A stretch of 64,000 nt of DNA from an uncultured Gammaproteobacteria bacterium (GTDB lineage: Bacteria; Patescibacteriota; Microgenomatia; CAZETR01; Amesbacteraceae): contig CAYHNU010000001.1 of assembly GCA_964358085.1 (NCBI GenBank), positions 11,220 to 75,219 of the forward strand, read 5' to 3'. Positions within the stretch are counted from its first letter, which is position 1; the number at the start of each line of letters is the position of its first letter. Positions 21,452 through 58,775 of the stretch are shown here, one piece after another. A program made the position numbers and the translations under genes. The notes under the pieces were generated by a model. It was not told the origin of the DNA. It saw only the letters and a program-made list of their open reading frames with translations, and did not search any database.

Positions 21452-22578
21452 ACATTCTTATGCTTTCCTGGCGCGGTCCCGGCCACCCCAACTATGGCGG
21501 AGCCGAGATCGTTTCACATGAACATGCCAAAGCCTGGGTAGCTGCTGGTCACCAAGTAACCTTATTCACCTCCTATTTTCCTGGCGTTCCTCAAGAAGAG
21601 TTTGTTGACGGGGTGAAAATAATTCGCAGTGGAAACCAACTAATTACGATTCAACTTGCGGCTATGTATTGGTATTTGTTTGGCCGCCATTCCAAATATG
21701 ATTTGGTTATTGATCAATTTCATGGTATCCCTTTTTTTACTCCGCTTTTTGTCAGAACCAAAAAATTGGCATTTATCCATGAAGTGGCTAAAGAAGTTTG
21801 GTGGATAAATCATTTACGCTTCCCCATTAATTACATATTTGGCACAGCCGGGTTTATTTCCGAACCCTTAATTTTTCGATTTTTTTATCGTCACATCCCT
21901 TTTTTTACCGTATCCCAGTCCACAAAACAAGATTTGATCAAGTGGTCCATCCCTGCTTCAAATATTCATATAATACCTAACGGAGTCACCACTTTACCTG
22001 CTAAATTTGCCAAAGAAAAAATCCCAACCGTGATTTTTTTAGGCGCTATCGCTCAAGATAAGGGAATTGAAGATACACTGTTTGCCTTTTCACACATTGT
22101 CAAACTACATCCCCAGTGGCGTTTATGGGTTGTTGGTAAGAGTGAACCGACCTATCAGGCTAAGCTGGATGAACTCGGCCTTCACTTAGGAATTAATTCT
22201 CGGCTCAAATTCTGGGGCTTTGCGAATGAGCCAAAAAAATTCGAACTTTTATCCCGGGCCAATGTGATGCTTAACCCATCAGCCAGAGAAGGCTGGGGAT
22301 TAGTGAATATTGAAGCTAATTCCGTCGGCACACCCGTTGTCGCCTACGATGTTCCCGGTTGTCGTGACTCTATCCAAGACCAGATCACCGGATTTCTTTG
22401 TCCCAAAGGCGATATTTCCTGTCTTGCTAAAACCTGCGTCCGCCTTGTGAGTGATAATAAGTTGTATGAAAAAATGTCAGCTCAAGCAATAAAATGGTCT
22501 CAGCAATTTTCCTGGACCAAATCAACTTCTATTAGCCTCAAGCTTATTGAGACTTTACACACAACAAATCCGCGTTGA
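21448..22578 (+). CDS. GT4 glycosyltransferase, member 3 of a tandem triplet
   Basis: 'MNILMLSWRGPGHPNYGGAEI', 'NPSAREGWGLVNIEANSVGTPVVAYDVPG'. N-terminus nearly identical to member 2. Confidence 0.65.
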   Translation: MNILMLSWRGPGHPNYGGAEIVSHEHAKAWVAAGHQVTLFTSYFPGVPQEEFVDGVKIIRSGNQLITIQLAAMYWYLFGRHSKYDLVIDQFHGIPFFTPLFVRTKKLAFIHEVAKEVWWINHLRFPINYIFGTAGFISEPLIFRFFYRHIPFFTVSQSTKQDLIKWSIPASNIHIIPNGVTTLPAKFAKEKIPTVIFLGAIAQDKGIEDTLFAFSHIVKLHPQWRLWVVGKSEPTYQAKLDELGLHLGINSRLKFWGFANEPKKFELLSRANVMLNPSAREGWGLVNIEANSVGTPVVAYDVPGCRDSIQDQITGFLCPKGDISCLAKTCVRLVSDNKLYEKMSAQAIKWSQQFSWTKSTSISLKLIETLHTTNPR

Positions 22579-23404
22579 AGAGTGAATCCTGGGGGTAATC
22601 TATCAATATTTTTTGAATTGAAAGGGTAGACACTTTTTTGGTAATGTTATTGATTTCGAAAATTTTGAATTTACTCTTCTTAAGAAGATTTAGATACTCC
22701 CGACCAGAACTTCCACACAGGCGCAACCCTCTTGGCCAGAACTCGGTTAAAAGCTTCAGTTTTTTACTTTTCCTTATTATTTCTGATGCACCAGTTAAAG
22801 TTTTTGTCTCCGAGCCTTGAATGTCCATCTTAATGACATTAATTCTTTTCTCTTTATTTTTTAAAAAAGTGTCCAATTTGATTGTACCTATAGAAATAGA
22901 TACCCGATTGCCTTCTGGGTCATAAATACGTTGATCGCCGAAATTGTCTTCATTACTCAAAAAAAGTTTGGCAGTACCATCTCTATCCGACACGGCTTTG
23001 TTAATTAGTACTACGTTTTTATATCCATTTAACTCCACGTTTTTTTTAAGTAATTCGAAATTTTTGGGAAGTGGTTCAAACGCATATACCCTTCCTTTAT
23101 CCCCCACTTTTTTCGCGGCAATTAATGTGTAATACCCAATGTGTGCTCCTATATCAACGACAATGTCTCCCAAATTAATACTTTGTTTAAAAAGTTCCGT
23201 TTCAAATTCTTCCCATTTTCCACTCAACAATAACTCCAGTGAAATAACTCGGTCATCTTTATCAATATACATCCGGTGGCCATCGACTATTACTGATTCT
23301 GGTTTAAAAAAATTTATAATTCTGGAGGCGATGTTCTTAGTATGAGGATTTTCATAGATGGGGTGTACGATTTTCCATAAAATTCCTCTAAACATAAGTA
23401 CCAT
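22544..23404 (-). CDS. FkbM-family SAM-dependent methyltransferase
   Basis: 'VVDIGAHIGYYTLIAAKKVGDKGRVYAFEPLPKNF'. The 'FG(N/T)...D(I/V)(E/Q)G.E' tail 'KMDIQGSET' is typical of the Methyltransf_21/FkbM family. Confidence 0.6.
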   Translation of the reverse strand: MVLMFRGILWKIVHPIYENPHTKNIASRIINFFKPESVIVDGHRMYIDKDDRVISLELLLSGKWEEFETELFKQSINLGDIVVDIGAHIGYYTLIAAKKVGDKGRVYAFEPLPKNFELLKKNVELNGYKNVVLINKAVSDRDGTAKLFLSNEDNFGDQRIYDPEGNRVSISIGTIKLDTFLKNKEKRINVIKMDIQGSETKTLTGASEIIRKSKKLKLLTEFWPRGLRLCGSSGREYLNLLKKSKFKIFEINNITKKVSTLSIQKILIDYPQDSLFNADLLCVKSQ

Positions 23405-23453
23405 TATACAGCCAAAATACTTTGTTGTTTGGTGTTAGAATAAGAAGTTATAC

Positions 23454-24431
23454 ATGGCAGTAGAAGCTCGAATTAATACAGTCTCTAATGGGGACACGGA
23501 GATTCTCGTCCCCCTGCACGGAGGTACCTATCAAGTGGTTTGGGAACGTTCTTGGGGGAGTGGTGTTTTTAATCCTTCCCCAAATCAATTTTCAGACTTT
23601 GCCCGAGGCATTAATTATGTAAAAGGGGGCGAGCACAAACTTCTTTTTGGTGTCACTCTTAACGGTGCCTGCCCGGCCGATTGTCTGGATTGCCCCTTCG
23701 GGCGCACAATTATGGCAAAACTTTATACCAGTCTAACTGACAAACAACTCACCCTAGCTCGTCCAATCAGCTCTTCAGAATTACAATCTGCTCTCGAGCG
23801 TGCAAAAGAAATAGCCATAAAGAATGGTATTCTAAGCCAAAACGAAGTGTTTGCAGCAGGAGCCCTTCTGGCGGGAGATCCTGGTTATAGCCCTCACATT
23901 CCCGACCTCATAGCCACGGTTAGCGGTTTTACTGGTTGTGAAGCCTGCCGTTGGTCTACGGTTGCGCCCGATACTGAAAACAATGTCTTGGGGGCTTTTA
24001 TAGAGGGAGCAACTCGAGCCAAGGAAGCCAACCCGACCCACACGCTCAGTTTTCAAGTCTCCCTTCATAGTACCGACCATCAGGAACGTATCAACCACAC
24101 GGGTGTTTCTCGTCTTCTGTCGATGCAAGAAATCTCAATGACATCTCAAAGAATCAGAAAAATTACTGGTAGAAAATTATCTCTTTCCTTTGTATTGCAT
24201 GAAGGATCTGTATTAGATCCACAAGTATTAAATGATAATTTCTCTCCTGACAACAACCTTATCTCTCTACGACCTATCTATTCTCGCATTACCAATCCCA
24301 TAAATCCGGACAGGTTGATAGAACTTTATTCAAAATTAAGAAGCGACAATTGGGATGTGGTTTATATGCCCCCAAGTCAAAGCTATACAGAAGGTGGGCG
24401 GCCAATTGAATTACACAACATGAGAAGCTAG
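23454..24431 (+). CDS. Hypothetical protein with CX3CX2C cysteine motif (possible divergent radical-SAM-like or metal-binding enzyme)
   Basis: 325 aa. 'GVTLNGACPADCLDCPFGR' = C-x3-C-x2-C, plus a later 'GCEACRW'. Visibly higher GC than flanking genes. Lone plus-strand gene between two minus-strand genes. Confidence 0.35.
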   Translation: MAVEARINTVSNGDTEILVPLHGGTYQVVWERSWGSGVFNPSPNQFSDFARGINYVKGGEHKLLFGVTLNGACPADCLDCPFGRTIMAKLYTSLTDKQLTLARPISSSELQSALERAKEIAIKNGILSQNEVFAAGALLAGDPGYSPHIPDLIATVSGFTGCEACRWSTVAPDTENNVLGAFIEGATRAKEANPTHTLSFQVSLHSTDHQERINHTGVSRLLSMQEISMTSQRIRKITGRKLSLSFVLHEGSVLDPQVLNDNFSPDNNLISLRPIYSRITNPINPDRLIELYSKLRSDNWDVVYMPPSQSYTEGGRPIELHNMRS

Positions 24432-25216
24432 GCGGGTGGATTGTAATAGCCCATTGCTGCCTTAATGGCCATTAAGAGGACATCAATTTTTTTTCTAAAT
24501 CCCACAATCTTAGTAGGGGTTTTGCCCTGCGGAGGGTAACATCGCACAACTGGAATCTCGACACTTCGTAGTCCCAATCGGTTGGCGCGAGCGGTCACAT
24601 AAAACAAAATTTCGTAATTGCTAAAAACATTTCTAAATAATTTCAACCTTGAATTAAGAAGTAATTTTCGGCTATGGGCCCGAAAACCATTACTTGTGTC
24701 CGTGTATATCTTACCAGCCGCTAAATTGAGAATTGGAGTGAACAAGTATCTGTTTGCAAATTTCCTTTCTAGCGGGGTATTGACCGCCCGGCCACCTTTT
24801 GCGTATCTGGATCCTTGAATATAATCAAAACCCTCATCTAGTTTTTTTATAAAACTCGAAATTGCTTCTACCCCATCTTTACCATTTCCATCCATCTGCA
24901 CTACCCCTCGATAACCATTTTTAAGCGCAAAGGTATAAGCCATCCGGTACTGCGCCCCCAATTTGCCCGGACCGGTTTTTACAAGCAAAGCTGTCACTCC
25001 TTGATTTTTCAAAAATTTCGGATCAGTCGAACCGTCAGTGCTACCTCCGTCGGCAATAATAATGTCCACCAACTTCGCATACTTCTTTACTTTTTGTAGT
25101 TGTTTCTTAAACTTATCTCCTTCATTAATAACAGGGATGACCAGACAATATTTGGTCTTTCTTTTCTTAAACTCGATCTTTTTAAAACTCGGCACCTCCC
25201 AATCCTTTTTCACCAC
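24428..25216 (-). CDS. GT2 polyprenyl-phosphate sugar synthase (DPM1/GtrB-like)
   Basis: 'YCLVIPVINEGDKF', 'IIADGGSTDGS', 'VVQMDGNG', 'GSRYAKGG'. 262 aa soluble. Divergently paired with the GtrA-like gene. Confidence 0.65.
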   Translation of the reverse strand: MVKKDWEVPSFKKIEFKKRKTKYCLVIPVINEGDKFKKQLQKVKKYAKLVDIIIADGGSTDGSTDPKFLKNQGVTALLVKTGPGKLGAQYRMAYTFALKNGYRGVVQMDGNGKDGVEAISSFIKKLDEGFDYIQGSRYAKGGRAVNTPLERKFANRYLFTPILNLAAGKIYTDTSNGFRAHSRKLLLNSRLKLFRNVFSNYEILFYVTARANRLGLRSVEIPVVRCYPPQGKTPTKIVGFRKKIDVLLMAIKAAMGYYNPPA

Positions 25217-25291
25217 TCAATTATACAGAAGAACTTACAACATCTGTATAATTGTCTTGTGGTACAAACTTTTATACAATTCGTGCGGTTT

Positions 25292-25648
25292 ATGTTTGTG
25301 GGCGGATTGGCAGTAGGGGTTGATTTTGTGGTTTATTTTGGGTTGTTATTTTTACTACCAGTTATTCCTATTTCTTTGGCCAAAGCTATATCTTACATCT
25401 GTGGAGCAACTGTTTCATTTATTGGCCACCGGTATTTTGTATTTGAAGCCCACGACCGCCACCCGCAGCATCAAATCCTGCCCTTCAGTGTTCTCTACAG
25501 CAGTTCTTTAGTAGCCAATAACTTAACCAACCTAGTTATTTTAAATCTGACGGGAGTAAAAATCTTGGCCTGGTTTGTGGCCATCTGCTTATCAACTACA
25601 ATAAATTATCTGGGCATGAAATTTGGGGTGTTCAGGAAAATTAATTAA
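25292..25648 (+). CDS. GtrA-family small membrane protein (polyprenyl-P-sugar flippase-like)
   Basis: 118 aa, 4 TM. 'FVRFMFVGGLAVGVDFVVYFGLL', 'GHRYFVFE'. 'KILAWFVAICLSTTINYLGMKFGVF' is typical of GtrA-like proteins. ATG at 25292. Confidence 0.6.
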   Translation: MFVGGLAVGVDFVVYFGLLFLLPVIPISLAKAISYICGATVSFIGHRYFVFEAHDRHPQHQILPFSVLYSSSLVANNLTNLVILNLTGVKILAWFVAICLSTTINYLGMKFGVFRKIN

Positions 25649-25692: not shown

Positions 25693-26733
25693 ATGAAAGT
25701 TTTAGTGACAGGTGGAGCGGGATTTGCAGGAAGTCATGTTTGTGAGTATTACAAAAACGCCGGAGCAAAAGTTATTGCTTATGACAGCTTAACTAAATTT
25801 GAACTGCGTCGTACTGGATATTCTACAGAAAAAGCTCGATTTCATAATGTAGACTTTCTAAAAAAGATAGGTATTGATGTTGTTAAAGAAGACATTCGGG
25901 ACCGGGAGACACTGGAGTCATACGCAAAAAAAGCTGATTTTATTATTCATACAGCCGCCCAACCAGCGATGACTATTTCTTGGGAAGATCCGGAATTGGA
26001 TTTCACCACCAACGTCGTGGGGTCATTTAATGTACTAGAAATTGCACGTAAATATAAAATACCTACAGTATCTTGTGCGACCATTCACATTTATGGCAAC
26101 AAAATCAATGATGAGGTCAAAGAAGGGAAAACTCGCTATATCAGACGCCCAACAGAGATTGATGAAAATCATAGATTAGTTGAAGGATTGTTGACCCCAT
26201 TGCATGCTTCTAAACACACCCTAGACCTTTACACTCAAACTTACATCGATACATACAAACTCCCTTTGGCGTCTTTTAGACTCACAGGTCTGTATGGATC
26301 TCGTCAATTCGGTGGTGAAGATCATGGTTGGGTGGCCAATTTCGCCATTCGTTCCGTCATGGGTTATCCATTAACTATCTTTGGTACCGGCAAACAAGTG
26401 CGAGATATTTTGCATATTTCAGATCTTACCCGAGCTTTCGACGCTTTTTACAAAAAACAAAAAGCCGGAGTGTACAATATTGGCGGGGGAACTAAAACCA
26501 CTCTCTCACTAATTGAATGTATCCATTTGATTGAAAAAATATTGGGCAAGAAATCTAAAATTAAATACCAGCCTTCGCGGATGGGGGACTTGGTATATTT
26601 TGTTTGTAACACGACCAAAGCCCAGAAAAATCTAGGCTGGTCTGCCAAAGTTACTCCGGATAAAGGTGTTAGGGAACTAGTTAATTGGGTTCAAGAAAAT
26701 AAACATCTTTTCGAGATCAAAGATGCAAAGTAG
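25693..26733 (+). CDS. NAD-dependent sugar-nucleotide epimerase/dehydratase (extended SDR; CDP-paratose-epimerase/UDP-Glc-4-epimerase-like)
   Basis: 'MKVLVTGGAGFAGSH' Rossmann motif. 346 aa extended SDR length. Confidence 0.65.
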   Translation: MKVLVTGGAGFAGSHVCEYYKNAGAKVIAYDSLTKFELRRTGYSTEKARFHNVDFLKKIGIDVVKEDIRDRETLESYAKKADFIIHTAAQPAMTISWEDPELDFTTNVVGSFNVLEIARKYKIPTVSCATIHIYGNKINDEVKEGKTRYIRRPTEIDENHRLVEGLLTPLHASKHTLDLYTQTYIDTYKLPLASFRLTGLYGSRQFGGEDHGWVANFAIRSVMGYPLTIFGTGKQVRDILHISDLTRAFDAFYKKQKAGVYNIGGGTKTTLSLIECIHLIEKILGKKSKIKYQPSRMGDLVYFVCNTTKAQKNLGWSAKVTPDKGVRELVNWVQENKHLFEIKDAK

Positions 26734-27502
26734 TGTCAAGATCGGTGTCATTCCTGCCGCTGGATCTGGTAGACGACTGGGTTATCTATCGGGACTTCTT
26801 CCTAAAACCTTATTTCCTCTATACGACCGTCCTATCATTCATTACGTTGTAGATCAAATGCAGAAGGCGGGGATTGAAGACATTTACATTATTGTTAATG
26901 TTTACAAAGAAAAAGTCATAGAGTACTTCAAGCCAGTGCAAATGGATCTGAGATCCAATATTCATTTTATCGAGCAGAAGGAGTTAAATGGTACCGGGGA
27001 GTCCATTCTTTTAGCTGAAAAATATGTAAAAAAGGAACCTTTCATGGTCATATACGGTGACGATTGTACTATTACTGAGTCACTGGAGCCCATGATCAAT
27101 AATTTTTTAAAGACTAACGCTTCAGTAATGGAGGGTGTGGTCAAAGAGACGGATTTAGACATACTTCGACATACATGCTCTGTAAAAATGGCTAAAAATG
27201 GCAAAATGATCGAGATTATTGAAAAACCCGAATTCCCCCCTTACATGCTTAGGGGCTGTGGGGTTTACTTATTTAGACCCGATATTTTTTCTCAAATCAG
27301 ACAAACTCCAATTCATCCAATTCGTAAAGAAAGAGAAATTACATACACTATCAATAACCTTGCAAAACAAAATAAGGCATATGGGTTTCTAATAAATGGT
27401 TACAACATTAACATTAATGATTACGATGAATTACTTAAAGCCAGTCAGCTTCTAAAGGATAGTAAAAAGAATTCAAAAAAGGTTATTGAAGTTCTCTTCT
27501 AG
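26723..27502 (+). CDS. Sugar-1-phosphate nucleotidyltransferase
   Basis: 'IGVIPAAGSGRRLGYLSGLLPKTLFPLYDRPIIHYVV' is the G-x-G-x-R-L NTP_transferase signature. Confidence 0.6.
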   Translation: MQSSVKIGVIPAAGSGRRLGYLSGLLPKTLFPLYDRPIIHYVVDQMQKAGIEDIYIIVNVYKEKVIEYFKPVQMDLRSNIHFIEQKELNGTGESILLAEKYVKKEPFMVIYGDDCTITESLEPMINNFLKTNASVMEGVVKETDLDILRHTCSVKMAKNGKMIEIIEKPEFPPYMLRGCGVYLFRPDIFSQIRQTPIHPIRKEREITYTINNLAKQNKAYGFLINGYNININDYDELLKASQLLKDSKKNSKKVIEVLF

Positions 27503-27503
27503 A

Positions 27504-28346
27504 TTATCTTGGTCTCGAAAGATAAACCAATGGAGTATACAAGCCCCGAGACGCCAACCATTTTAGAAAACCACCCATCTTCAAGGTGCGAATAATCTTA
27601 GAAATAAATTGAATGTAAATACTACGACCGTAAATCTCGTTTGATGTCAACTGACGCGACCACTCTGGCAGACCTAAGTTTTCAAATTCAAATCCTTGTT
27701 TCCTTAAAGCTAACTCAACCGATTTATGTGTTACAAATCTTAGCTCGTCAAAAAACTTCTTATTAGTTCTTCCGGCAAGTTGGCAACACCACCATTTCCA
27801 TATGTCTGGACCGGGAGGGAAAAAGATATAAAAATGTGGTTCATAAGGAATATTATAATTCGGTGTTTCAATAAATAATCTTCCCTCTTTTTTGATTACT
27901 TTTCGCAACTTTCTTAAATAATCATTTAGGTCAGCGACATGCTCAACTGTTTCGAAAGAGGAAATAAAATCGAATTTCCCCTTTAATCTAAAGGCATCAG
28001 GAGTAGATTGAATTCTGGAGGGAGAAATATTATTTGCTCTCAGCATTTCTTTTGCAATATTTCGGGCAACGGGATCAATTTCGTATCCGTAATAATTATA
28101 TCCGGCCAAATTGGCTGCAGCCACAAGTGTGCCTATACCGCAACCGGCGTCCAAACAAATATTATTCTGTCTCACTCCAATCACTTTCAATCTTTTTATT
28201 TGTACAATTGCACTTTCCAATCTGTGTTTAGCAAAATCTGACATTGCGTACGATTTGGGAATAACTCCGCTATAAGTGGCTTCATAGTATTTGACAATTT
28301 TTTCCCACAGATACTGGGAAATTTTTACTTTATTAATTTTTAACAT
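27504..28346 (-). CDS. Class I SAM-dependent methyltransferase
   Basis: 'CLDAGCGIGTLVAAANLAGYNYYGYEIDP' (motif I). 280 aa. Confidence 0.6.
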   Translation of the reverse strand: MLKINKVKISQYLWEKIVKYYEATYSGVIPKSYAMSDFAKHRLESAIVQIKRLKVIGVRQNNICLDAGCGIGTLVAAANLAGYNYYGYEIDPVARNIAKEMLRANNISPSRIQSTPDAFRLKGKFDFISSFETVEHVADLNDYLRKLRKVIKKEGRLFIETPNYNIPYEPHFYIFFPPGPDIWKWWCCQLAGRTNKKFFDELRFVTHKSVELALRKQGFEFENLGLPEWSRQLTSNEIYGRSIYIQFISKIIRTLKMGGFLKWLASRGLYTPLVYLSRPR

Positions 28347-38245: not shown

Positions 38246-38804
38246 TGAACATTTTATTTCGTCGGGTAAGTTGATCAAGCAATCACTATCCAAGTTACGC
38301 GACCCCATCAGTCAAGCAGCCAAGTTAATCTCTAAAACTTTTAACTCCGGAGGAAAACTTTTGATTTGTGGTAATGGGGGAAGTGCGGCCGATTCTCAAC
38401 ATTTTGCAGCTGAACTGGTAGGGCACTATTTGACGGAACGAAAACCATTAGCGGCCATAGCCCTTACCACCAACACTTCTTCGTTAACAGCAATAGGAAA
38501 CGATTACGGATTTGATAAAGTTTTTTCTCGCCAAGTTGAGGCATACGCAACAAAAGGCGATGTGCTTTTTTGTATTAGTACCAGCGGTAACTCCGCAAAT
38601 GTAATTGCCGCCGCCAAAACTGCTAAATCATTACAAGTCAAAACAATTGGTCTGACAGGCAACAAGGGAGGTAAGCTAAAATCCCATTGCGACATTAATC
38701 TCATTGTTCCATCAAACCATACTCCCTTTATTCAGGAAATTCATCTCGTTACTATACACATAATCTGCGATCTGGTAGAATCAGGTCTTCTTTCTTCGAT
38801 ATGA
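38232..38804 (+). CDS. gmhA: Sedoheptulose-7-phosphate isomerase (SIS domain, GmhA-like)
   Basis: 'GGKLLICGNGGSAADSQHFAAELVG', 'GDVLFCISTSGNSANVI'. About 190 aa. Confidence 0.7.
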   Translation: MQSINEHFISSGKLIKQSLSKLRDPISQAAKLISKTFNSGGKLLICGNGGSAADSQHFAAELVGHYLTERKPLAAIALTTNTSSLTAIGNDYGFDKVFSRQVEAYATKGDVLFCISTSGNSANVIAAAKTAKSLQVKTIGLTGNKGGKLKSHCDINLIVPSNHTPFIQEIHLVTIHIICDLVESGLLSSI

Positions 38805-45144: not shown

Positions 45145-46207
45145 TTAAATTAGCTAAAAAGATAGATGCCGTTTTTTTCCAACTGAAAGCAGAAGCACGT
45201 TTTAATCCCTTTTCTTTAAGGCTATTTCGAAGGTTCTTGTCTTTTAAAGTTTTAAGCATTGCCGTTGTTAACTCCGTTTGGTTTTTCACCAAAATTCCTG
45301 CATCTCCTACTAATTCCGTAAGCGAAGAATTGGCATATGAGATCACCGGAGTCCCACACTTCATGGCTTCTAAAATAGGCAGGCCAAATCCTTCGTACAG
45401 TGAAGTACAAACAAATATGTCTGCTCCACAATATAAACTAGACAATTGGGAATAATCTGGCCTGCAAACGTAGATAATTTTATCGTAAATACCTAATTTT
45501 TTTGATAACTGAACGATTTCTTGATAATTTTTGCCTTCTGTGATGCCCACAATTACCAATTGAAGGGATTTATTTAACTGTTCACATACTTCCGAAAAAG
45601 CCAATAATAAGTCGACCATATTTTTTCGAGGAATGAATGTGCCGGGAAATGCAAGGGCAAACGGTTGATTAATGTTGTATTGTTTTAAATTGATCACTAT
45701 TTTCTGAGTAGGTTGAATACAAATTTCATCTGGTGAAGCAAGAGGGGTTATAAAAATCTTATGGGGGTCAATTTTTAGAATTTTAATAATGTCGTTTTTG
45801 GAGTTTTTGGAGAATGTAGATATCTTTACAGCTCTGTGAGCTGAAATAAAATACATGATAAATAAATAAATCTTAGTTATACCCAAGATACCAGAATCGT
45901 AAACAAACGACATGTCTGGAATAGTCAGGACTATGGGAACAGAAAGTAAAAATGGTATGGGTGGATTTAAAAAAATACCTATGTTGAATTTTTTTTCTCT
46001 AAATACATTAAACAATTTAATTTGTAACCAATATTGTTCGCTGATCAACCACCACAACCCTCCCCAACGCTTTGTTGTTTGATCTTTTAAAATAAAATAT
46101 TGATTTTTCTTGTCAATTATTCGTAGATTATTAATCAACCTTTGGGCATAGACGGCCATACCACCTTTGTGGTTAGATACAATTCTAAAGTCTACTCCAA
46201 TATTCAT
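45134..46207 (-). CDS. GT4 glycosyltransferase
   Basis: 'MNIGVDFRIV...', 'VCTSLYEGFGLPILEAMKCGTPVISYANSSLTELVGD'. Confidence 0.6.
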   Translation of the reverse strand: MNIGVDFRIVSNHKGGMAVYAQRLINNLRIIDKKNQYFILKDQTTKRWGGLWWLISEQYWLQIKLFNVFREKKFNIGIFLNPPIPFLLSVPIVLTIPDMSFVYDSGILGITKIYLFIMYFISAHRAVKISTFSKNSKNDIIKILKIDPHKIFITPLASPDEICIQPTQKIVINLKQYNINQPFALAFPGTFIPRKNMVDLLLAFSEVCEQLNKSLQLVIVGITEGKNYQEIVQLSKKLGIYDKIIYVCRPDYSQLSSLYCGADIFVCTSLYEGFGLPILEAMKCGTPVISYANSSLTELVGDAGILVKNQTELTTAMLKTLKDKNLRNSLKEKGLKRASAFSWKKTASIFLANLNAI

Positions 46208-51400: not shown

Positions 51401-51630
51401 TTGGCTACGCCAATTTATGGGAAATTAATCCTCAAATTATTCAGATTGACTTTCCTAAGTCAGATTATCAAATAATGTCAGATGGAAGTTTGAAATTAAA
51501 GTTAAAGCTATACTTTCAACCATATAATTATTTTTGGACAGTAAATATTATATCTGCATCGGCATATGCGTTAGGAATAGCTTATGTATTGTTATCTATA
51601 TTCATTAAATTTATTAAAAAACAGAAATGA
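48442..51630 (+). CDS. Giant polytopic membrane protein, paralog 2 of 3 (extra N-terminal soluble domain)
   Basis: About 1062 aa. 'YYLGGDDSRLFYLYPQEF', 'FRNMFDKFAYAMAFQWAF', C-terminal 'VFGYANLWEINPQI'. ATG at 48442 (TTG alternative at 48427). Very AT-rich. Confidence 0.55.
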   Translation: MFNFVFFVRLLAIWGTILVVFTTFSVYQDIKQNKLLNYTDTYSSSSVDIKSEYKSSGILKYVFKFLAHDDYLGTMTFKYFRLRENQGQVIFRIKEISQKDWYAENRYDFSYFVNDDIYQFGFPEIKNSKGKQFIVEFEIVSQTLMKDQRSLDLKTAPILTVKYVFPRDTYYKSVGKLSTIVLNRSISVLTEMDYVKVFISSFLIAMFFLIALSRQENETGPKIIIRQKVLQKNVQILSNWTNKINPFIVPGVVLIILSLGFVSGNYVLAERMSVQLWATLFGSVVFYILQVTIFNRLSNLIKHINTISANTLSILDDLMNKKLLLLMGTLFVIVSGMSATYYLGGDDSRLFYLYPQEFLDNYISKIVSDTGVSQLTNLIPPTSLSAFTIIMIGLRNILYQFNLQALLNSANLVGGFFAFYYLLNYLLKPTDKYERVICVLASFMYVFSIFNFYTLLNSRLIAEYLISLFPLSLYLGIKAIREGKFYLFILATLIWSAFSFLSVTLPLSGAVLITSIPLLIFATWKHKIRIIAYLVGAGLLFAVLNLHWFMFIPYTNFSKNIPGSYTPSLTSVEFRKQNEIGIRTVSDINNSFFPLLNSYHRKIQINFNWPHLPIYLSWYSKILILGYLLIAVVIIAGIRIEKNKQRKGIYVALVINFVLAVYFFTVNIGPWGVDVFLWLSNHIPGFVIFRNMFDKFAYAMAFQWAFLISVSLIVIVKSIKKTMFKEYLLFAIFLIAIINAKPFLLREFVNLPYWTSKYSHDGITAFNSDYLDLLKFVKNQDGVGRYLSLPLLTGNSVIVEGEKQKDHYYAGVSPLLLLTGKNDMSGLMSFGEHSNKVFKWLTKKDYDSFGQLLQQYNVKYIILSNSTSEDLQPSFMFSDGLFYLQTKSFYQSIIGQKVRDFGSRYSLFEINSKYLSEKIYITDSPGSFVNQEANLSFKKLATHEYEIEVSDLRKQLSLVFLDPYLKEWQLLTPSGKELSTEYHHPVFGYANLWEINPQIIQIDFPKSDYQIMSDGSLKLKLKLYFQPYNYFWTVNIISASAYALGIAYVLLSIFIKFIKKQK

Positions 51631-52064: not shown

Positions 52065-54647
52065 ATGATTCCCTTAATCGGTGCACATGACTTTCCATAT
52101 CTTTTTTTAGATCAAGCTGCTGGCCTGTTTAGATTGCCTCTTACTTGGGCGACACAAAGCCATGACTCTCTGGGGGTATTTACTTTATCTACTCTCTGGA
52201 ATTGGCCATACGGACTTCTTTACGGATTGGCTGGAAAAATCGGCTTAAACTTTACTCTTTCTACATTATTTTTCGGCATTCTCCCCGTATTTATCTTAGG
52301 CTGGTTTACTATTGGCAAACTACTCAAAAGCCATTCTCTCTCATCTCCTGCAAGATTTGTGGGTCAATTCCTATTTATAGCCAACACATACATCCTGATG
52401 CTCATTGATGGAGGCCAACTTAGTCTGGCCGTAGCCTATTCTTTCTTCCCTCTGGTTATTCTTTATCTTCCCTCCCGATTAAACTTTGTTTTGGCTATCA
52501 TTGCCATATCTTTCCTCGATATTCGTTATTTATACATCTTATTTATACCCATTGGCTTAAAAATATTTTTCGATTTTCGTCATACATTTAAATACTTAAT
52601 TACCGGATTATTCACGGGCTTAATTCTTATAGGTCTTCATAGTTATTGGATTTTGCCTTCCATCCTCTCCAAAGGTCCCTCTTTGCCCTCTACTTATACT
52701 CGTCCTGCTCAAGTAGACGCCCTTAGTTTTGCTAGCCTCTCTCATGCCTTTCTGTTGATTCATCCTCACTGGCCAAAGAATATTTTCGGCCAAGTAGCTA
52801 CTCCGTCGCCCTATTTCCTTCTCCTACCCATCCTTACCTTCCTTCCATTAGTCGTGTTTCGCAAAAATGTCACAATTGGTTATTGGTCAACACTAGCCAT
52901 CATCGCAGCCTTTCTTGTGAAGGGGAGTGGCTCACCTTTTCCTCAAGTATATAGTTGGTTGTTCTCTCATATTCCTGGTTTTTCTCTTTTTCGCGATCCG
53001 ACAAAATTTTTCCCCTTACTCGCCTTGTCATATAGTGTGTTGATCGCCTTTTCGGCAGACTTTATCTACATGCGCCGCAGGTCTTGGTTTATATTTATTC
53101 CTTTGTATTTAACGCTCCTGTTGGTCCCTATTTTTTTAGGTGAAACAACCGGCTTGTTTTCAAAAGCTCGTAATCAAGACTCTTATCTCAAGTTGGCAAG
53201 CTTTATGAACAACGATCTTTCTCCCGGAAGCTTGCTATGGGTGCCCTCCAAACCCCCCCTTGGCTATTCCAGCCCCACCCATCCGTCCATAGACGCCTTA
53301 ACTTTACTCGACAAAAGACCATTCGCCACTGGGGTGGTAGGTAGCTATGAACTCTTAAACTTTCTACGCGACGCTACCTATTCGGGAGAGCTTCTCAATA
53401 TCGCATCCATAAAATATTTAGCCATATCTAGCGTTGATCCCAAAAGGGACAGCTTAAAAATTGAAGACATTCAATACCGCGATATTTTTACTAAACAACT
53501 AACCTCCTTACCTTGGGTCAGCTCATATCAGAAATTTGGTCCTGTCACCCTCTTGCAAACCAAAATCCATCAACCCCTCTTTTTTATTCCGTCTACTACA
53601 ACTTTTGTGGTCGGTCCCGATGATATTTATAATACAGAAGTTAAATTGAGCAATAAGGCCCTAGTTTTTGTGGAAAGCCAACCTAATCTATTATCTCAAA
53701 TTCGCCAATTTCCTCAAGCCAAAATTCTTTTAAATCATAAAACTAATCTGGATGCAGCTGCCGCCCTTCTCCCCCGCGAAAGCTTTCTCTTTCCCAGCCC
53801 ACTTTTAAATTTTAGTCCTGATTCTTCCGGATGGTGGAAGAGGGAAGCGTCGGATTTAATTTCCTGGCGGGACTTTCTCCAACAAAAGTATAATTTAGAT
53901 AATCAAGATTTTGATTATGGAGGAGGATGGTCGATCTCGGAAGGCGCGCATACTTTAACGGTAAAACAGTCATCCAGTTGCCAATCGGATTGTATTCTTC
54001 TAGCTCGGGTCATGACTAGCCCCCAAGGAGGAAAAATACACTTTTCTAATTCCCAGCAAGCAATAGGTGAAATAGATACTATCAACTCCAATCCATCCCC
54101 ATCCACCATAACTCGTAAACTCACAGGTTATCAAGACACAGCCGACCAAATCTTTACTTACAATCGGGCGGATTTTCTCTGGCATGAAGTTGGCCAGCTA
54201 TCTGATTCCTCGCCAATTAGTATTTCCACCGAAGGCAATATTAATGTTGTAAATTCTCTGGCTGTTATTCCGTCGCGCTCATGGGAAAAACTTAAATCTC
54301 AAGCGGTCCAATTGGTAACAATTGCGTCTTCGCCTTCCAATGACAACCCCCAAGTGTCTTACCAGCAATTAGGCCCCGCTCATTATCGTGTAAAGGTGAC
54401 TGGATTGACCCATCCCGCGACTCTGGCTTTTGTTCAAAATTACGATCCTTTTTGGAAACTATCCGGCCAAACGCCCATTCCTTTATACGGTATGATTAAT
54501 GGCTTTTCCATTCCTGGCGCCGGTGAATATGATCTAATTTTTTCACCGCAGAAATATGTGAATTTTGGATTGGCAATAAGCGTTACAACTCTTCTTGTCT
54601 TGTTATTACTCCTATATAATGGCCATCGTAAACATGATTCAAAATAA
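52065..54647 (+). CDS. Giant polytopic membrane protein, paralog 3 of 3 (large C-terminal soluble domain)
   Basis: 860 aa. 'LFRDPTKFFPLLALSYSV' parallels the FRNMxDKFA motif of paralogs 1 and 2. C-terminal 'LYGMINGFSIPGAGEYDLIF', then a final TM 'LAISVTTLLVLLLLLY'. Confidence 0.5.
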   Translation: MIPLIGAHDFPYLFLDQAAGLFRLPLTWATQSHDSLGVFTLSTLWNWPYGLLYGLAGKIGLNFTLSTLFFGILPVFILGWFTIGKLLKSHSLSSPARFVGQFLFIANTYILMLIDGGQLSLAVAYSFFPLVILYLPSRLNFVLAIIAISFLDIRYLYILFIPIGLKIFFDFRHTFKYLITGLFTGLILIGLHSYWILPSILSKGPSLPSTYTRPAQVDALSFASLSHAFLLIHPHWPKNIFGQVATPSPYFLLLPILTFLPLVVFRKNVTIGYWSTLAIIAAFLVKGSGSPFPQVYSWLFSHIPGFSLFRDPTKFFPLLALSYSVLIAFSADFIYMRRRSWFIFIPLYLTLLLVPIFLGETTGLFSKARNQDSYLKLASFMNNDLSPGSLLWVPSKPPLGYSSPTHPSIDALTLLDKRPFATGVVGSYELLNFLRDATYSGELLNIASIKYLAISSVDPKRDSLKIEDIQYRDIFTKQLTSLPWVSSYQKFGPVTLLQTKIHQPLFFIPSTTTFVVGPDDIYNTEVKLSNKALVFVESQPNLLSQIRQFPQAKILLNHKTNLDAAAALLPRESFLFPSPLLNFSPDSSGWWKREASDLISWRDFLQQKYNLDNQDFDYGGGWSISEGAHTLTVKQSSSCQSDCILLARVMTSPQGGKIHFSNSQQAIGEIDTINSNPSPSTITRKLTGYQDTADQIFTYNRADFLWHEVGQLSDSSPISISTEGNINVVNSLAVIPSRSWEKLKSQAVQLVTIASSPSNDNPQVSYQQLGPAHYRVKVTGLTHPATLAFVQNYDPFWKLSGQTPIPLYGMINGFSIPGAGEYDLIFSPQKYVNFGLAISVTTLLVLLLLLYNGHRKHDSK

Positions 54648-55296
54648 ATATTTGGGATATTTTAAAAAGCATTATCACGCAAAGTTTAGCGCTGAGGATA
54701 TAGAATCATCACAAAAATGGTTATATCCACAATGGAAATTAATCAAAGAAAAGACAACATTATCAAAAAAAAGCAAAGTGCTGGAAATTGGCGCAGGTTT
54801 TGGAGGTTTCTATAGTTATTTATCTCAAGTGATCGAAGGTAACTCGTATACGGGTATAGAATTAGATAAAGAAGTTGTTAAATTTTGTAAGGATTTTTTT
54901 AAAACCGGAAACTTTACGAACATAAGCATCGAGAGATTCAACTCCAAAAATAAGTTCAACTACATTTTTGCCTTCGAAGTTCTCGAGCACCTAAATGATC
55001 CTTTTGAAACCATTGGTAAAATACACTCTTTACTAGACAAAACAGGTGTATTTGTAGGAACTTCTCCTTACCCATATCTAAAAAATGTTTTTGCCGATCG
55101 CACGCATAGATACGTACTCCATCCTGTAAATTGGACTAAACTTTTTATAGAGGCAGGTTTCAAGCATGTTTCGATTTATCCTATGAGTTTCATACCGTTT
55201 ATTTGGAGACTCAATAAACATCTTAATTTTAGAATACCATTTTATATTCCTTTCAATGGTTTTATTTCCACTGCCCTTATAATTGCATCAAAATGA
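54595..55296 (+). CDS. Class I SAM-dependent methyltransferase
   Basis: 'VLEIGAGFGGFYSYL', 'FNYIFAFEVLEHLNDP'. Start uncertain (54595, 54619 or 54634). Confidence 0.55.
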   Translation: MSCYYSYIMAIVNMIQNKYLGYFKKHYHAKFSAEDIESSQKWLYPQWKLIKEKTTLSKKSKVLEIGAGFGGFYSYLSQVIEGNSYTGIELDKEVVKFCKDFFKTGNFTNISIERFNSKNKFNYIFAFEVLEHLNDPFETIGKIHSLLDKTGVFVGTSPYPYLKNVFADRTHRYVLHPVNWTKLFIEAGFKHVSIYPMSFIPFIWRLNKHLNFRIPFYIPFNGFISTALIIASK

Positions 55297-55958
55297 AGGC
55301 AACAGACTTATCCTTATTCAATTTCTATAATCAAAAACATTTGACTGAAATTTCGAAAAAGGGATACTATAAAGAGCTGTCGTTATCCCAAAAACTACAA
55401 ATAATTGATGTTGCTTGTAACGATGGCACATTGACTAAAATATATAATAAATATGGAGATATTTATGGTGTTGATATGAATAAGAGATCGGTTACGGCCT
55501 GTAGAAAAAAGGGTATAGTTTGCATACATTCAGATATTGATTCTTTACCAGTAAAGTATCAGAATAAATTTGATGTTGTGGTTGCCACGGATATAATTGA
55601 ACATGTATTTAATACTGACAAATTCTTAATTAATCTAAAGAAGCTTCTTAGACCATGTGGGACATTACTGCTTACTACGGCAAACGTGGCCTCTATCGGC
55701 AGAAGAATAATGCTACTTCTTGGCAAGAATCCATTTCTAGAATATTCGACTAGATATCCAAATGTCGAAATTAACGTGGGTCACATTCGATACTACACAG
55801 TAAAAGATATGAAGATTCAACGGTCAGGATTGGGATTTAAGGACATCCGTATATATGGTGACAAGATAAATATTACAAGCACTATTTCGATTCCTCATGT
55901 AATTGCAAAGTGGTTTCCAAATATCTCCAGATACATGTTTGTGGAGTGCAGGATATAA
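55293..55958 (+). CDS. Class I SAM-dependent methyltransferase
   Basis: 'IIDVACNDGTLTKI', 'FDVVVATDIIEHVFNTD', 'LRPCGTLLLTT'. ATGA overlap. Confidence 0.55.
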   Translation: MKATDLSLFNFYNQKHLTEISKKGYYKELSLSQKLQIIDVACNDGTLTKIYNKYGDIYGVDMNKRSVTACRKKGIVCIHSDIDSLPVKYQNKFDVVVATDIIEHVFNTDKFLINLKKLLRPCGTLLLTTANVASIGRRIMLLLGKNPFLEYSTRYPNVEINVGHIRYYTVKDMKIQRSGLGFKDIRIYGDKINITSTISIPHVIAKWFPNISRYMFVECRI

Positions 55959-55971
55959 TTGTGTAGAGCAA

Positions 55972-57240
55972 ATGAACCAAAAACTCTTGGCCATATTCCA
56001 AACCCAAACATTGCGGCAATCGATTATCACAATTGTATCCACTTTTACCACCGCCGGCTTGGGCGCGGTATTTTATCTCCTTCTGGCCAGGATTATAGGT
56101 GCCCATGAATATGGATTATTCTCGGTAGTAGTTTCAATCTTGACCATTATTGTAACCTTTACTGACGTGGGTATGGGACAGGGGTTAGTTAAATTTGTAG
56201 CGGAAAATAGCGGCAGCGATAAATATCAACCTTATGTCAAAATTGCCCTGTTCACCAAAATTGCTATCGGCCTGGTGGTCAGTTTGGTTCTGTGGGCGTT
56301 TGCGAAGTCCCTGGCGGTTTCTCTCCTGCGCCAGCCGGAGGTAGCCAAGCTCCTGTCTATCACCGGATGGGGAGTTCTATCGATCATGCTTTTTAGTCTT
56401 TCCATATGTGTTTTTCAGGGACTGCAGAAGTTTATGCTCTGGGGCGGGCTGCAGGTTGGAGCTAATTTTTTCCGACTGCTTCTCCTCGGTTTTCTTCTGC
56501 TCGTCGCGGTGAAAATTGATTCAGTTTGGATGTTGGTCCTGTTTATTGCCGCTCCGCTTTCCGGATTTTTACTTTCCTGGTTTTGGCTGCCGGTCAGTAT
56601 TCTTAAAGCCAAAGTTACTTCCGTTCACTGGCACAATTTTTGGAATTTTAACAAGTGGACTGCCGCGCTTGGTATCACGGCCACTCTTGCTAGCCGCCTG
56701 GATACTCTACTCACCGCCCGATTTCTAACTCTATCTCAAACCGGTGTTTACGCCATGGCCATCACCATGGTGGCTTTTTTGCCCCAGCTGTCTTCGGCCA
56801 TCGGAGCCGTGACCGCGCCTAAATTTGCTTCATTTTCTGACTCCGATCACTCTCAAAAATATCTTGTCAAATCCACTCTTTTTTCGTTTGGTATTAGTGT
56901 AGGTGTGGCCCTAGCCATGATTCCGGCGGCCATGCTTGTCATCCGGTTTACCGGTCGGGATTTTTCTGCCTCTTTTACACCTTTCTTAATTCTGCTTCTG
57001 TCACTGGCAATATTCACTTCGCTTAACCCCGTCCGCGACAGCATTTTATATTTTTACAAACGCCCCCAGTTCTTCTTTTGGGCCAATCTCGCTCAAGCCG
57101 CTATCATTGTTGGGGCCGGGTTTTTGCTCATTCCCCGTTTCGGGGTCATTGGCACATCGTTGGCAGTGTTAATTAGCCACGTGTTTTTCGCTATCGCCAG
57201 TTGGTGGGAATATGAAAATTGTCGCGCACACGCTAGTTAA
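55972..57240 (+). CDS. Polysaccharide/oligosaccharide flippase, MOP superfamily (Wzx-like)
   Basis: About 422 aa, 12-14 TM. 'SIITIVSTFTTAGLGAVFYLLLARIIGAHEYGLFSVVVSI' is a typical Polysacc_synt N-terminus. ATG at 55972. Confidence 0.6.
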   Translation: MNQKLLAIFQTQTLRQSIITIVSTFTTAGLGAVFYLLLARIIGAHEYGLFSVVVSILTIIVTFTDVGMGQGLVKFVAENSGSDKYQPYVKIALFTKIAIGLVVSLVLWAFAKSLAVSLLRQPEVAKLLSITGWGVLSIMLFSLSICVFQGLQKFMLWGGLQVGANFFRLLLLGFLLLVAVKIDSVWMLVLFIAAPLSGFLLSWFWLPVSILKAKVTSVHWHNFWNFNKWTAALGITATLASRLDTLLTARFLTLSQTGVYAMAITMVAFLPQLSSAIGAVTAPKFASFSDSDHSQKYLVKSTLFSFGISVGVALAMIPAAMLVIRFTGRDFSASFTPFLILLLSLAIFTSLNPVRDSILYFYKRPQFFFWANLAQAAIIVGAGFLLIPRFGVIGTSLAVLISHVFFAIASWWEYENCRAHAS

Positions 57241-58021
57241 AAACGAACAAAGATGGGTGTGGTATGCAATAACCTCGGTTATTGATTTTGTAGATGAAAT
57301 TAAAGTATGGGATACAGGATCAAGCGATCAAACATTAGAGGTGGTTAAATCGATTGAGTCGCCTAAACTGACCATTAGGCAAACTTTGACTAAAAACCCA
57401 AAAGCCATAACGGCAATTAGACAAAAGATGCTTGAGGAAACAACAGGGGGGTGGGTTTTGATTTTGGACGGAGACGAAATTTGGACCGAAGGAGCCATTA
57501 GAGAGTCTCGTAAACTTATTGAGGGCGAAAAAAGTCTGCGATATTTGGCCAATAGGTACATTAATTTTATGGGTGACGTTTATCACACTCAAGATCCAAA
57601 AGCGGAAATGTACAATATTGCGGGTTTTAAAGGAAATGTAAATTTGAGGCTGGTCAATTTAGACGCCTACAAAAAAGTAAGTTTTGAGGGTGACTTAAGC
57701 AATGAGTGGATGGCTGACGAAAACGGGAATAAATTGCAAGATGAATCCATGGGGGTAGCTATAGTTGAGGAACCTTATCTTCATGCCACCAGACTTCCCA
57801 GATCGGGAAGTGAAACAGGTGATGAAATAACGTTTATGCGAAAAACGAAATATAAATGTGATTTGGGAACACGGTTTCCCAAAAATTTTATATATCCTAA
57901 AGTATTTTATTTCCCCAAACCAATTAATGTTCCCAGTCCATGGGCGAGGAGAAGTATTACTTTTGTAGCAAACGCAGCTTGGCAAACGCCCCTTCGCGCC
58001 ATAAAAAACTATGTCCTATAA
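57212..58021 (+). CDS. GT2-like glycosyltransferase
   Basis: 'MKIVAHTLVKNEQRWV', 'WDTGSSDQT', 'ILDGDE'. 269 aa. Confidence 0.5.
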   Translation: MKIVAHTLVKNEQRWVWYAITSVIDFVDEIKVWDTGSSDQTLEVVKSIESPKLTIRQTLTKNPKAITAIRQKMLEETTGGWVLILDGDEIWTEGAIRESRKLIEGEKSLRYLANRYINFMGDVYHTQDPKAEMYNIAGFKGNVNLRLVNLDAYKKVSFEGDLSNEWMADENGNKLQDESMGVAIVEEPYLHATRLPRSGSETGDEITFMRKTKYKCDLGTRFPKNFIYPKVFYFPKPINVPSPWARRSITFVANAAWQTPLRAIKNYVL

Positions 58022-58775
58022 CCGTCGTAAATACTATGCCCTAGCTGCAAAAGCCAGTAAGCAGATAGGGGAGCATCCTGGCCTTTTGTATTTACAGAAA
58101 ATTGCCGGCCAGTCATCTAAGGTGTTAGATGTAGGTTGTGGCGAAGGGTCACGTTTAGTAACTTTGTTGCCTCCAGGCCAGTTTGCTTGGGGAGTGGATA
58201 TTGACAAATACGCTATCAATCTTGCCAAAAAACAGTATCCGGATCAGCATTTTCAAATCTATTCAGGAGAAAAATTGCCTTATAAATCAAATACCTTTGA
58301 TCTAGTTTATTCTGCTTTTGTTCTCGAGCATGTCCAAATTCCGGCAAATTTATTAAATGAAATGATCCGCGTCTGCCAGCCCAGAGGGAGCGTCATCCTT
58401 CTTTGTCCGAATTTCGGTGCTCCGAACAGAAGATCCCCAAATTCAATTCAAAATTCCATTTCAAAGCTCCTCACAGGTTTTATTAACGATTTTTTCAGTA
58501 CTTCTATTTTCCGTTGGGAAAAGGTCCAACCTAAACCGGTTTACAATCTGCCGGACGACGACACAACAATTGAACCTTATTTATTATCGCTCATTCGTTA
58601 TTTCCAAAGCAAAAAATTAACAATTAATTTAGCATCGTCTTTATGGAATCTGGAAGTACCAAGCCTTAATCCTCGAAAAATAATTGTCAAAATACTAGGC
58701 CAGTTAGGCATTTTTCCATTTAAATACTGGGGTCCTCAAATTTTTGTTTCAGCCATTAAAACCGTATCTGACTAA
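58011..58775 (+). CDS. Class I SAM-dependent methyltransferase
   Basis: '[16 protein letters not shown]', '[14 protein letters not shown]', '[13 protein letters not shown]'. Confidence 0.6.

Follow-up and report, generated by a model that had tools for sequence, protein, structure and literature searches.

A methyltransferase-dense glycan locus with a conserved, putative heptose module in a Candidatus Amesbacteria-like groundwater bacterium

Introduction

Why should eleven genes for S-adenosylmethionine (SAM)-dependent methyltransferases (MTs) stand within 36 kb of DNA among genes for glycan synthesis? The question is raised by a 64,000-nt stretch of contig CAYHNU010000001.1 (hereafter the window, meaning the whole stretch that was analysed), in which a first-pass annotation had marked such genes between positions 22544 and 58775, three of them of the FkbM type, and had read them as the sign of a heavily O-methylated glycan. 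Our analysis favours, with some reserve, the view that this DNA forms the core of a supercluster for the synthesis of surface glycans, at least 82 kb long, in an uncultivated, ultra-small, Candidatus Amesbacteria-like groundwater bacterium of the candidate phyla radiation (CPR), and that the MTs probably methylate its glycans. The new point is a conserved module in the centre of the locus, consisting of a membrane glycosyltransferase (GT) of the GT-C type, an FkbM gene, a heptose-activation cassette, a class I MT, a further FkbM gene in some of the genomes, a GT4 enzyme and another MT.

CPR bacteria (Patescibacteria) are regarded as cells that live attached to a host and, to our knowledge, almost nothing is known of their surface chemistry; our literature search on glycan methylation in Patescibacteria or Amesbacteria returned nothing on the topic. 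A survey of freshwater CPR reported ADP-heptose synthesis in Paceibacteria only (PMC9166423), and the present locus points to heptose biosynthesis in a Microgenomates lineage.

Identity of the eleven methyltransferases

Scanning all window open reading frames (ORFs) of at least 150 aa against Pfam (gathering score) and NCBIfam (curated cut-offs), the check that the first-pass annotation had itself proposed, recovered all eleven genes as MT-family members above curated cut-offs (Table 1) and returned no further MT besides them. The three FkbM genes (22544, 37499 and 41334; genes are named here by their first position) exceed both Pfam Methyltransf_21/FkbM (PF05050; 76, 76 and 52 bits against a gathering score of 22.7) and NCBIfam TIGR01444 fkbM_fam (115, 114 and 77 bits against a cut-off of 37.7), while each of the eight class I enzymes passes the gathering score of at least two models among Methyltransf_11, 23, 25, 31 and 12. 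A majority of RNA or small-molecule MTs, or of ORFs without any MT match, was not found: not one of these proteins attains the NCBIfam cut-off of an equivalog of that kind (UbiG, UbiE, BioC, RsmA, TrmB, cyclopropane-fatty-acid (CFA) synthase and others), the best sub-threshold matches scoring 20-55 bits against cut-offs of 100-650. The contig carries a twelfth MT (L010:17635-18381), about 8.7 kb downstream of the window.

The MTs are single-domain proteins of 221-286 aa and are soluble, having no transmembrane (TM) segments except buried hydrophobic helices, as judged from a hydropathy scan and from the structural model of FkbM 37499. Hydropathy had hinted at a C-terminal hydrophobic tail acting as a membrane anchor, which was rejected for FkbM 37499 because helix 222-234 lies buried within a confidently modelled fold, with a core beta-strand after it. 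Identity among the MTs is at most 36% and limited to the SAM-binding core, so that recent gene duplication was rejected as the cause of their number. No homopolymer tract (at least 9 A/T or at least 7 G/C) and no frameshift occurs inside any MT gene; phase variation of the Cj1426 kind was therefore rejected as well. The genes are packed in operon-like fashion with GT and sugar-nucleotide genes, with overlapping start and stop codons, and to this extent they do belong to one glycan locus, as had been proposed.

A putative heptose module between 33 and 52 kb

The centre of the region holds GmhA and a fusion of HddC and HddA which, by sequence, correspond to the route to GDP-D-glycero-alpha-D-manno-heptose. 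FkbM 37499 stands before this pair, and class I MT 40510 and FkbM 41334 stand after it, again with overlapping start and stop codons. FkbM 37499 is a candidate heptose O-methyltransferase, by analogy of gene context with the Campylobacter jejuni capsule locus, and the module most likely builds a glycan with an O-methylated heptose comparable to the 6-O-methyl-heptose of that capsule.

Upstream of FkbM 37499, and translationally coupled to it, is a large membrane protein (w35481, named by its first position). Its AlphaFold2 (AF2) model (pLDDT 90.6) has AftD (6w98, TMq 0.63) as best PDB match in Foldseek, followed by STT3, PglB and ArnT, and combines about seven or more TM helices with a beta-rich domain at the C-terminal end, as in a GT-C fold; homologues of w35481 carry PF11847. 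We assign the protein to the GT-C enzymes from these two sources only, the PF11847 matches of its homologues and the fold search. An hhalign comparison of its family with the PMT_2 paralogues described below was insignificant (3% probability), and a direct Pfam search of the large membrane ORFs (E<=1) gave nothing but a sub-threshold PMT_2 match for 7362-8864.

At the far end of the module stand two further polytopic proteins, w46224 and w48427, which are 30% identical to each other; w46224 also matches w35481 (E 5e-6), which makes the pair distant paralogues of the latter. Both lie in a low-GC island (46224-51926; 31-34% against 41% for the window), where a 99-aa ORF with three TM segments follows them.

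Conservation in relatives and exchange of the heptose cassette

Four orthologous loci were compared with the window: L007 (Rifle Amesbacteria), L012 (Microgenomates Gr01-1014_16), L013 and L014 (GCA_000402715.1). The shared gene order is GT2, a 665-aa membrane protein, FkbM, the heptose cassette, class I MT, an FkbM gene that may be missing, GT4 and then, on the minus strand, MT and two GT4 genes, before a 741-aa protein that is kept in all four. A protein of about 1060 aa comes next wherever the sequence reaches far enough, that is, in the window and L013. An orthologue of w35481 is present in every one of the four loci. The convergent GT4 (42155-43363, +) and MT (43263-44018, -) genes overlap at their 3' ends by 101 nt, and the same 101-nt overlap is seen in L012, L013 and L014.

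Conservation of the individual MTs is uneven. The orthologues of FkbM 37499 form a tight group (59-79% identity, then a gap down to at most 44%), and those in L007, L012, L013 and L014, 65-71% identical to it, adjoin the heptose cassette. MT 40510 (73-80% identity) and MT 43263 (71-81%, despite its variant motif I) are likewise kept in all four loci. FkbM 41334 has an orthologue in L014 (68%) and is absent from L007, L012 and L013; MTs 34079 and 34756 were not found in L007, L012 or L013, and L014 offers only a distant 178-aa MT upstream. MT content that varies between relatives in this way fits diversifying selection on the decoration of surface glycans.

The cassette itself comes in two forms. 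The window, L007 and L013 carry the GDP type with the HddC-HddA fusion (93% identical in L007, 62% in L013). At the orthologous position, L012 (10734-14389) and L014 (6243-9897) carry an ADP type which, by Pfam, consists of GmhA, a GT9 heptosyltransferase, a PfkB kinase and an adenylyltransferase-HAD fusion. NCBIfam scoring, applied here to L012 only, places the kinase above the cut-off of the HldE kinase domain (TIGR02198, 355.7 > 345) and the fusion above that of GmhB (NF006506, 191 > 178). Across this exchange the flanking MTs remain orthologous, at 65-81% identity, and we take this persistence as tying them functionally to a heptose-containing glycan.

Methyltransferase density

The first-pass annotation had called the number of MTs in one glycan locus exceptional. 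As background we collected 80 metagenome loci centred on FkbM homologues (29-44% identity), of which 15 unrelated loci of at least 15 kb were counted with a home-made FkbM hidden Markov model (HMM) and a class I HMM/phmmer set; leave-one-out on the window MTs recovered 8/8 at E<=1e-12. The control loci hold 1-3 MTs per ~20 kb (mean 1.6, n=15, the seed FkbM counted), the orthologous Microgenomates loci 3-5 per ~20 kb, the window stretch L001 six in 21.7 kb, and 22544-58775 eleven in 36 kb. The density is thus real and high, about 2-4 times that of other FkbM-containing loci in a small sample (15 loci) counted with home-made HMMs. The earlier wording holds in degree and has to be tempered in one respect, part of the density being a trait of the Microgenomates lineage.

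Source and gene content of the supercluster

Protein look-ups matched the window genes exactly on a 111,441-bp contig from Hainich groundwater (well H41, 0.1 µm fraction, ENA ERZ1292624), of which the window makes up about 21.7-85.7 kb; the name of the contig gives its coverage as about 13x. Several independent assemblies carry identical window genes, and the eleven MT ORFs are full-length on them. The nearest reference genome is the metagenome-assembled genome Candidatus Amesbacteria GW2011_GWC2_45_19 (93% identity over the 573-aa fusion protein) and the sources of homologues are named 'Patescibacteria group' and 'Microgenomates group', from which we place the organism among the CPR/Microgenomates bacteria.

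Within the window 57 ORFs stand close together (coding density ~99%, largest intergenic gap 138 nt), and all genes with an assignable function are related to glycans, with the single exception of a Bro-N protein. Pfam and NCBIfam scans found about 20 GT2/GT4 enzymes and a hydropathy scan about 15 polytopic GT-C-like proteins, among them a tandem array of PMT_2/GT39-like GT-C enzymes and membrane proteins of GT87, PIG-V and PTPS_related type. These are joined by Wzx, GtrA, a GT2 resembling polyprenyl-phosphate-sugar synthases, a 4,6-dehydratase/epimerase, a nucleotidyltransferase, GmhA and the NTP-transferase/GHMP-kinase fusion. Glycan genes run on for at least 8 kb upstream, where L008 adds further GT-C and GT2 genes, and for at least 10 kb downstream (L010:10957-20963, contig ~85-95 kb), with GT4s, a hexapeptide acetyltransferase, a Wzy_C polymerase/ligase-like protein, a GT2, the twelfth MT and ManC. 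Extension beyond both window ends gives the supercluster its length of at least 82 kb. Scans of the window with Rfam and for tRNAs and tandem repeats returned nothing relevant.

Table 1. Methyltransferase genes and accompanying glycan genes discussed in the text, in order of position in the window
Feature	Position	Strand	Evidence and context
FkbM-family MT 1	22544..23404	-	PF05050 3.9e-21; TIGR01444 115 bits; motif VVDIGAHIG; convergent with three successive GT4 genes
GT2, polyprenyl-phosphate-sugar-synthase-like (-), and GtrA-family membrane protein (+)	24428..25648	-/+	PF00535; PF04138 GtrA 1.2e-18
NAD-dependent sugar-nucleotide 4,6-dehydratase/epimerase and sugar-1-phosphate nucleotidyltransferase	25693..27502	+	PF01370 6.9e-40; PF00483 3.4e-26
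Class I SAM MT	27504..28346	-	Methyltransf_23 7.2e-20; Methyltransf_11 6.1e-14; motif LDAGCGIG; operon with 588-aa polytopic membrane protein 28333-30099(-)
Class I SAM MT, atypical motif I	34079..34759	+	Methyltransf_23 1.4e-11; Methyltransf_11 1.2e-08; VGCIDDG; opens operon 34079-43363
Class I SAM MT	34756..35520	+	Methyltransf_11 1.7e-18; motif LDFGCGSG
Predicted GT-C-fold membrane glycosyltransferase, AftD-like (w35481)	35481..37508	+	No Pfam match; ~7 TM segments; stop overlaps start of FkbM 2
FkbM-family MT 2	37499..38245	+	PF05050 7.3e-21; TIGR01444 114 bits
GmhA, D-sedoheptulose-7-phosphate isomerase	38211..38804	+	TIGR00441 222.9 bits > 209.45 cut-off
Putative fusion of HddC (guanylyltransferase, N-terminal half) with HddA (GHMP kinase, C-terminal half), 573 aa	38801..40522	+	PF00483 and GHMP_kinases_N/C
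Class I SAM MT, UbiE-like core	40510..41337	+	Methyltransf_23 2.3e-18; Methyltransf_11 7e-17
FkbM-family MT 3	41334..42158	+	PF05050 1e-13; TIGR01444 77 bits
GT4 glycosyltransferase	42155..43363	+	PF00534 3.5e-29; kept in relatives
Class I SAM MT	43263..44018	-	Methyltransf_23 1.5e-09; Methyltransf_31/11/25; end gene of minus-strand operon with two GT4
Two GT4 glycosyltransferases	43930..46207	-	PF00534/PF13692; kept in relatives
Two paralogous large polytopic membrane proteins, 741 and 1067 aa (w46224, w48427)	46224..51630	+	No Pfam/NCBIfam match; 9 and 14 TM segments
860-aa polytopic membrane protein heading operon with two MTs and Wzx	52065..54647	+	8 TM segments; no Pfam match
Class I SAM MT	54595..55296	+	Methyltransf_23 1.5e-13; Methyltransf_12 1.1e-11
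Class I SAM MT, atypical motif I VACNDG	55293..55958	+	Methyltransf_31 1.4e-13; Methyltransf_11 6.5e-13
Wzx-type flippase of lipid-linked oligosaccharide	55903..57240	+	PF01943 3.9e-19; PF13440 2.2e-18; 10 TM segments
Class I SAM MT	58011..58775	+	Methyltransf_11 7.2e-20; no equivalog cut-off reached

For three entries of Table 1 the NCBIfam matches are of interest, all of them below cut-off. The GT2 at 24428..25648 is closest to AglJ and to a dolichyl-P-hexose transferase, and with its GtrA partner it would make lipid-linked sugar donors for the GT-C enzymes. The pair at 25693..27502 is closest to dTDP-glucose 4,6-dehydratase and to RmlA-long/GlmU-type enzymes. The weak match of the 860-aa protein, to the MmpA family of trehalose-lipid delivery, reaches 43 bits where the cut-off is 210.

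Five PMT_2/GT39-like GT-C paralogues (30-36% identical) stand near-tandem at 1677-12005, and a sixth, distant copy is found at 61002-62372; with the GT87-, PTPS_related- and PIG-V-like membrane GTs nearby, about 15 GT-C-like proteins are counted in 64 kb of a reduced-genome bacterium. The Bro-N protein (12007-12843) sits between GT-C and GT2 genes with overlapping stops and starts; its domain is usually phage- or virus-associated and DNA-binding. Per-gene GC in the window is very uneven (0.31-0.47), and GC and AT skew are strongly negative across the GT-C array (1-12 kb), a pattern that fits a mosaic, horizontally exchanged glycan locus as well as T-rich coding of membrane proteins. The ORFs 16343-18208, 23454-24431, 28333-30099 and 52065-54647 (621, 325, 588 and 860 aa) have no Pfam match at E<=1.

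How the locus may work

The gene content allows us to propose an order of events. The MTs would act as soluble cytoplasmic enzymes, presumably co-transcribed with the GT2/GT4, GT-C, Wzx and sugar-nucleotide genes, and each would modify one position, most probably a hydroxyl, on a particular sugar. Because SAM is found in the cytoplasm and the MTs are soluble proteins, methylation should take place before flipping, at the cytoplasmic face of the membrane, on NDP-sugars or on undecaprenyl-type lipid-linked oligosaccharides. Wzx, possibly with other proteins, would then flip the methylated intermediates, and GT-C enzymes would extend or transfer them outside the membrane using polyprenyl-phosphate sugars supplied by the GT2/GtrA pair. 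The central module would thereby couple cytoplasmic tailoring by MTs and GT4s to extracytoplasmic GT-C steps.

Several observations weigh against this account. No initiating phosphoglycosyltransferase was found by domain scans of the window ORFs. The two halves of the fusion have HddA (1.4e-68) and HddC (3.3e-46) as best NCBIfam matches, which stay under the respective equivalog cut-offs (600 and 300 bits), and the 1,7-bisphosphate phosphatase GmhB (HAD) was not found in the window, L008 and L010 (~82 kb of the contig), nor in L007 and L013; its gene may lie in another part of the genome. When six MTs were compared with PDB sequences by phmmer, FkbM 37499 gave no match and the other five matched mixed enzymes over the SAM core only, including UbiG, CFA synthases, 3bus and an entry deposited as a D-glucose O-methyltransferase. 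The best match of MT 40510, confined to the core, is 3bus, which we take to be the sugar O-MT RebM. FkbM 37499, the one of the three FkbMs that was modelled, gave an AF2 model with pLDDT 95 whose top PDB fold match is 2py6, an FkbM-family but uncharacterised protein (E 1.7e-8, TMq 0.54). Solved structures were thus set aside as a guide, their sequence and fold matches being uninformative about substrate, and neither substrate nor regiochemistry, including O- as opposed to N-, C- or phosphate methylation, can be read from the MT sequences. The small control sample and home-made HMMs behind the density estimate, and the atypical motif I of three class I enzymes considered below, belong on the same side.

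One methylated glycan or several

The most serious alternative is that several independent glycans are made, each lightly methylated (terminal caps or one to two decorations per repeat), so that the MT count reflects at least three juxtaposed clusters and not one hydrophobic polymer; we rate this somewhat short of even, and it overlaps with our preferred explanation without excluding it. Strand switches and GC steps (0.31-0.47) set sub-clusters apart. Sub-clusters also have sugar-nucleotide genes of their own: a deoxyhexose-type pair lies at 25.7-27.5 kb, the heptose cassette occupies 38-40.5 kb, and ManC is found downstream. Synteny with relatives is confined to the central module. Taken together, these features describe a mosaic of at least three modules. 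Moreover, in the protein O-glycosylation cluster of Tannerella forsythia three MTs serve two methyl groups (PMC6120980), from which it follows that MT count and methyl count are not the same thing. On the other side, the conserved module by itself has four to six MTs in ~10 kb, and the classical form of capping is opposed by the absence of an ABC transporter or WbdD-like terminator architecture in the window. We consider several methylated glycans at least as likely as one heavily methylated glycan, and the modular locus probably specifies more than one glycoconjugate. The proposal of a heavily O-methylated glycan is accordingly strengthened in one part, since in the central module an FkbM gene abuts GmhA/HddC-HddA and the linkage is kept in four related genomes, and weakened in another, its single polymer sitting less well with the mosaic and with the difference between MT and methyl counts.

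A second alternative, to our mind improbable, would have many of the class I MTs methylating something other than sugar hydroxyls: phosphate (as WbdD or the enzymes of O-methyl phosphoramidate do), the nitrogen of amino sugars, carbon (giving C-methyl branched sugars), or lipid or protein targets on the glycan, its carrier or its acceptor. Only domain models of a generic kind recognise the eight enzymes; below threshold, their best matches in NCBIfam and the PDB are mixed (UbiG, BioC, the DVU_1556 family, CFA synthase, phosphoethanolamine N-MT, 3bus); and a DegT aminotransferase stands upstream in the loci of relatives, so that the lineage does have amino sugars. ORF scans of the window nevertheless found no aminotransferase, no MT-fused kinase domain and no phosphoramidate genes. 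The FkbM trio, for its part, belongs to a family whose characterised members, such as FkbM, RfbT and NoeI, are generally O-methyltransferases. For Cj1426 this activity is documented (PMC3546167, PMC9112162).

Still less probable is that a sizeable fraction of the MTs are decaying, inactive or non-enzymatic, or are passengers acting on unrelated substrates. Motif I (D/E-x-G-x-G-x-G), canonical in 27504, 34756, 40510, 54595 and 58011, is variant in 34079 (VGCIDDG), 55293 (VACNDG) and 43263 (GCGND), and these three, judging from the motif, may be weak or inactive; the differences in MT content among relatives, where 34079/34756 and FkbM 41334 are missing in some, point the same way. Decay is hard to reconcile with eleven full-length ORFs identical across several independent assemblies and free of frameshifts and homopolymer tracts, with their embedding in GT operons by overlapping start and stop codons, and with the retention of variant-motif MT 43263 in four genomes. 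Finally, the comparison that had been drawn with mycobacterial methylglucose and methylmannose polysaccharides (MGLP and MMP), which are cytoplasmic, has next to nothing in its favour beyond the high MT count and the GT4 enzymes, and does not fit a locus with Wzx, Wzy_C, GtrA, a polyprenyl-phosphate-sugar-synthase-like GT2 and about 15 GT-C enzymes, that is, with export and extracytoplasmic assembly, in which no MGLP/MMP equivalog was matched in NCBIfam.

Significance

Our preferred reading, that the MTs tailor the glycans of one large surface-glycan supercluster, can be pushed further. In a bolder version, to which we give limited credence, the product would be a densely O-methylated, heptose-containing surface glycan, hence hydrophobic and evasive towards lectins and phages, assembled mostly by GT-C enzymes, and relatives would re-code their surface by swapping MTs and the heptose donor (ADP-beta against GDP-alpha) within a fixed scaffold. 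If this were so, methylation would serve episymbiotic bacteria as a diversifying 'surface code' with which to attach to hosts or escape from phages, and roughly a tenth of an assumed ~1-Mb genome would be invested in a single glycan supercluster.

Sugar O-methylation in surface-glycan clusters is already well known, and the locus extends this knowledge without overturning it; it is extreme in MT density and comes from a lineage whose surface chemistry is unexplored. The unusually dense set of glycan-tailoring MTs offers concrete targets for expression (FkbM 37499, MT 40510 and GmhA/HddC-HddA), and the exchange of ADP and GDP heptose cassettes within a conserved methylation scaffold amounts to a natural experiment on the diversification of glycan loci.

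Comparison with known systems

The WbdD/ABC-transporter system of O-antigen capping shares with this locus the idea only that methylation can terminate glycan chains. The Pfam scan gave no ABC transporter (ABC_tran) match in any window ORF of at least 150 aa, hence no Wzm/Wzt, and the MTs are without a kinase or coiled-coil extension.

The model of w35481 recalls mycobacterial AftD in its predicted GT-C fold and in the PF11847 of its homologues, and differs from it in being half the size (675 against about 1400 aa) and 14% identical. AftD has extra carbohydrate-binding modules and an acyl carrier protein partner, which w35481 does not.

Sugar O-MTs of the FkbM family include Vibrio cholerae RfbT and rhizobial NoeI. 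The window FkbMs share the Methyltransf_21 domain with them and show weak secondary matches to the RfbT model PF05575, at 17-19 bits against a gathering score of 27.9, and so are not members of the RfbT family.

The 27-kb general protein O-glycosylation cluster of T. forsythia mixes GTs, Wzx and several MTs (MtfJ, MtfO and MtfY) much as the present locus does, and decorates an S-layer protein glycan (PMC6120980). It has three MTs in 27 kb (PMC6120980) and no heptose pathway, as against eleven MTs in 36 kb here. By analogy, the most probable kind of target within the Gram-positive-like envelope of a CPR cell would be an S-layer protein glycan.

The closest likeness, one of gene context, is to the heptose module of the C. 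jejuni capsule locus. Its export context is a KpsMT ABC transporter, in whose place GT-C enzymes are found here. In C. jejuni NCTC 11168, Cj1423-Cj1425 (HddC, GmhA2, HddA) are followed by Cj1426, a heptose 6-O-methyltransferase whose modification confers phage resistance (PMC3546167) and which is annotated as FkbM family (PMC9112162). In both organisms an FkbM-family MT stands directly beside GmhA, HddA and HddC genes in a surface-polysaccharide locus. The Amesbacteria-like locus departs from this model in the fusion of HddC with HddA, in having up to four to six MTs around the cassette, in lacking a poly-G phase-variation tract, and in having sister genomes with an ADP-heptose cassette and a GT9 transferase. 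A last parallel is one of variation: methyl content differs among C. jejuni strains, and MT content differs among the relatives compared here.

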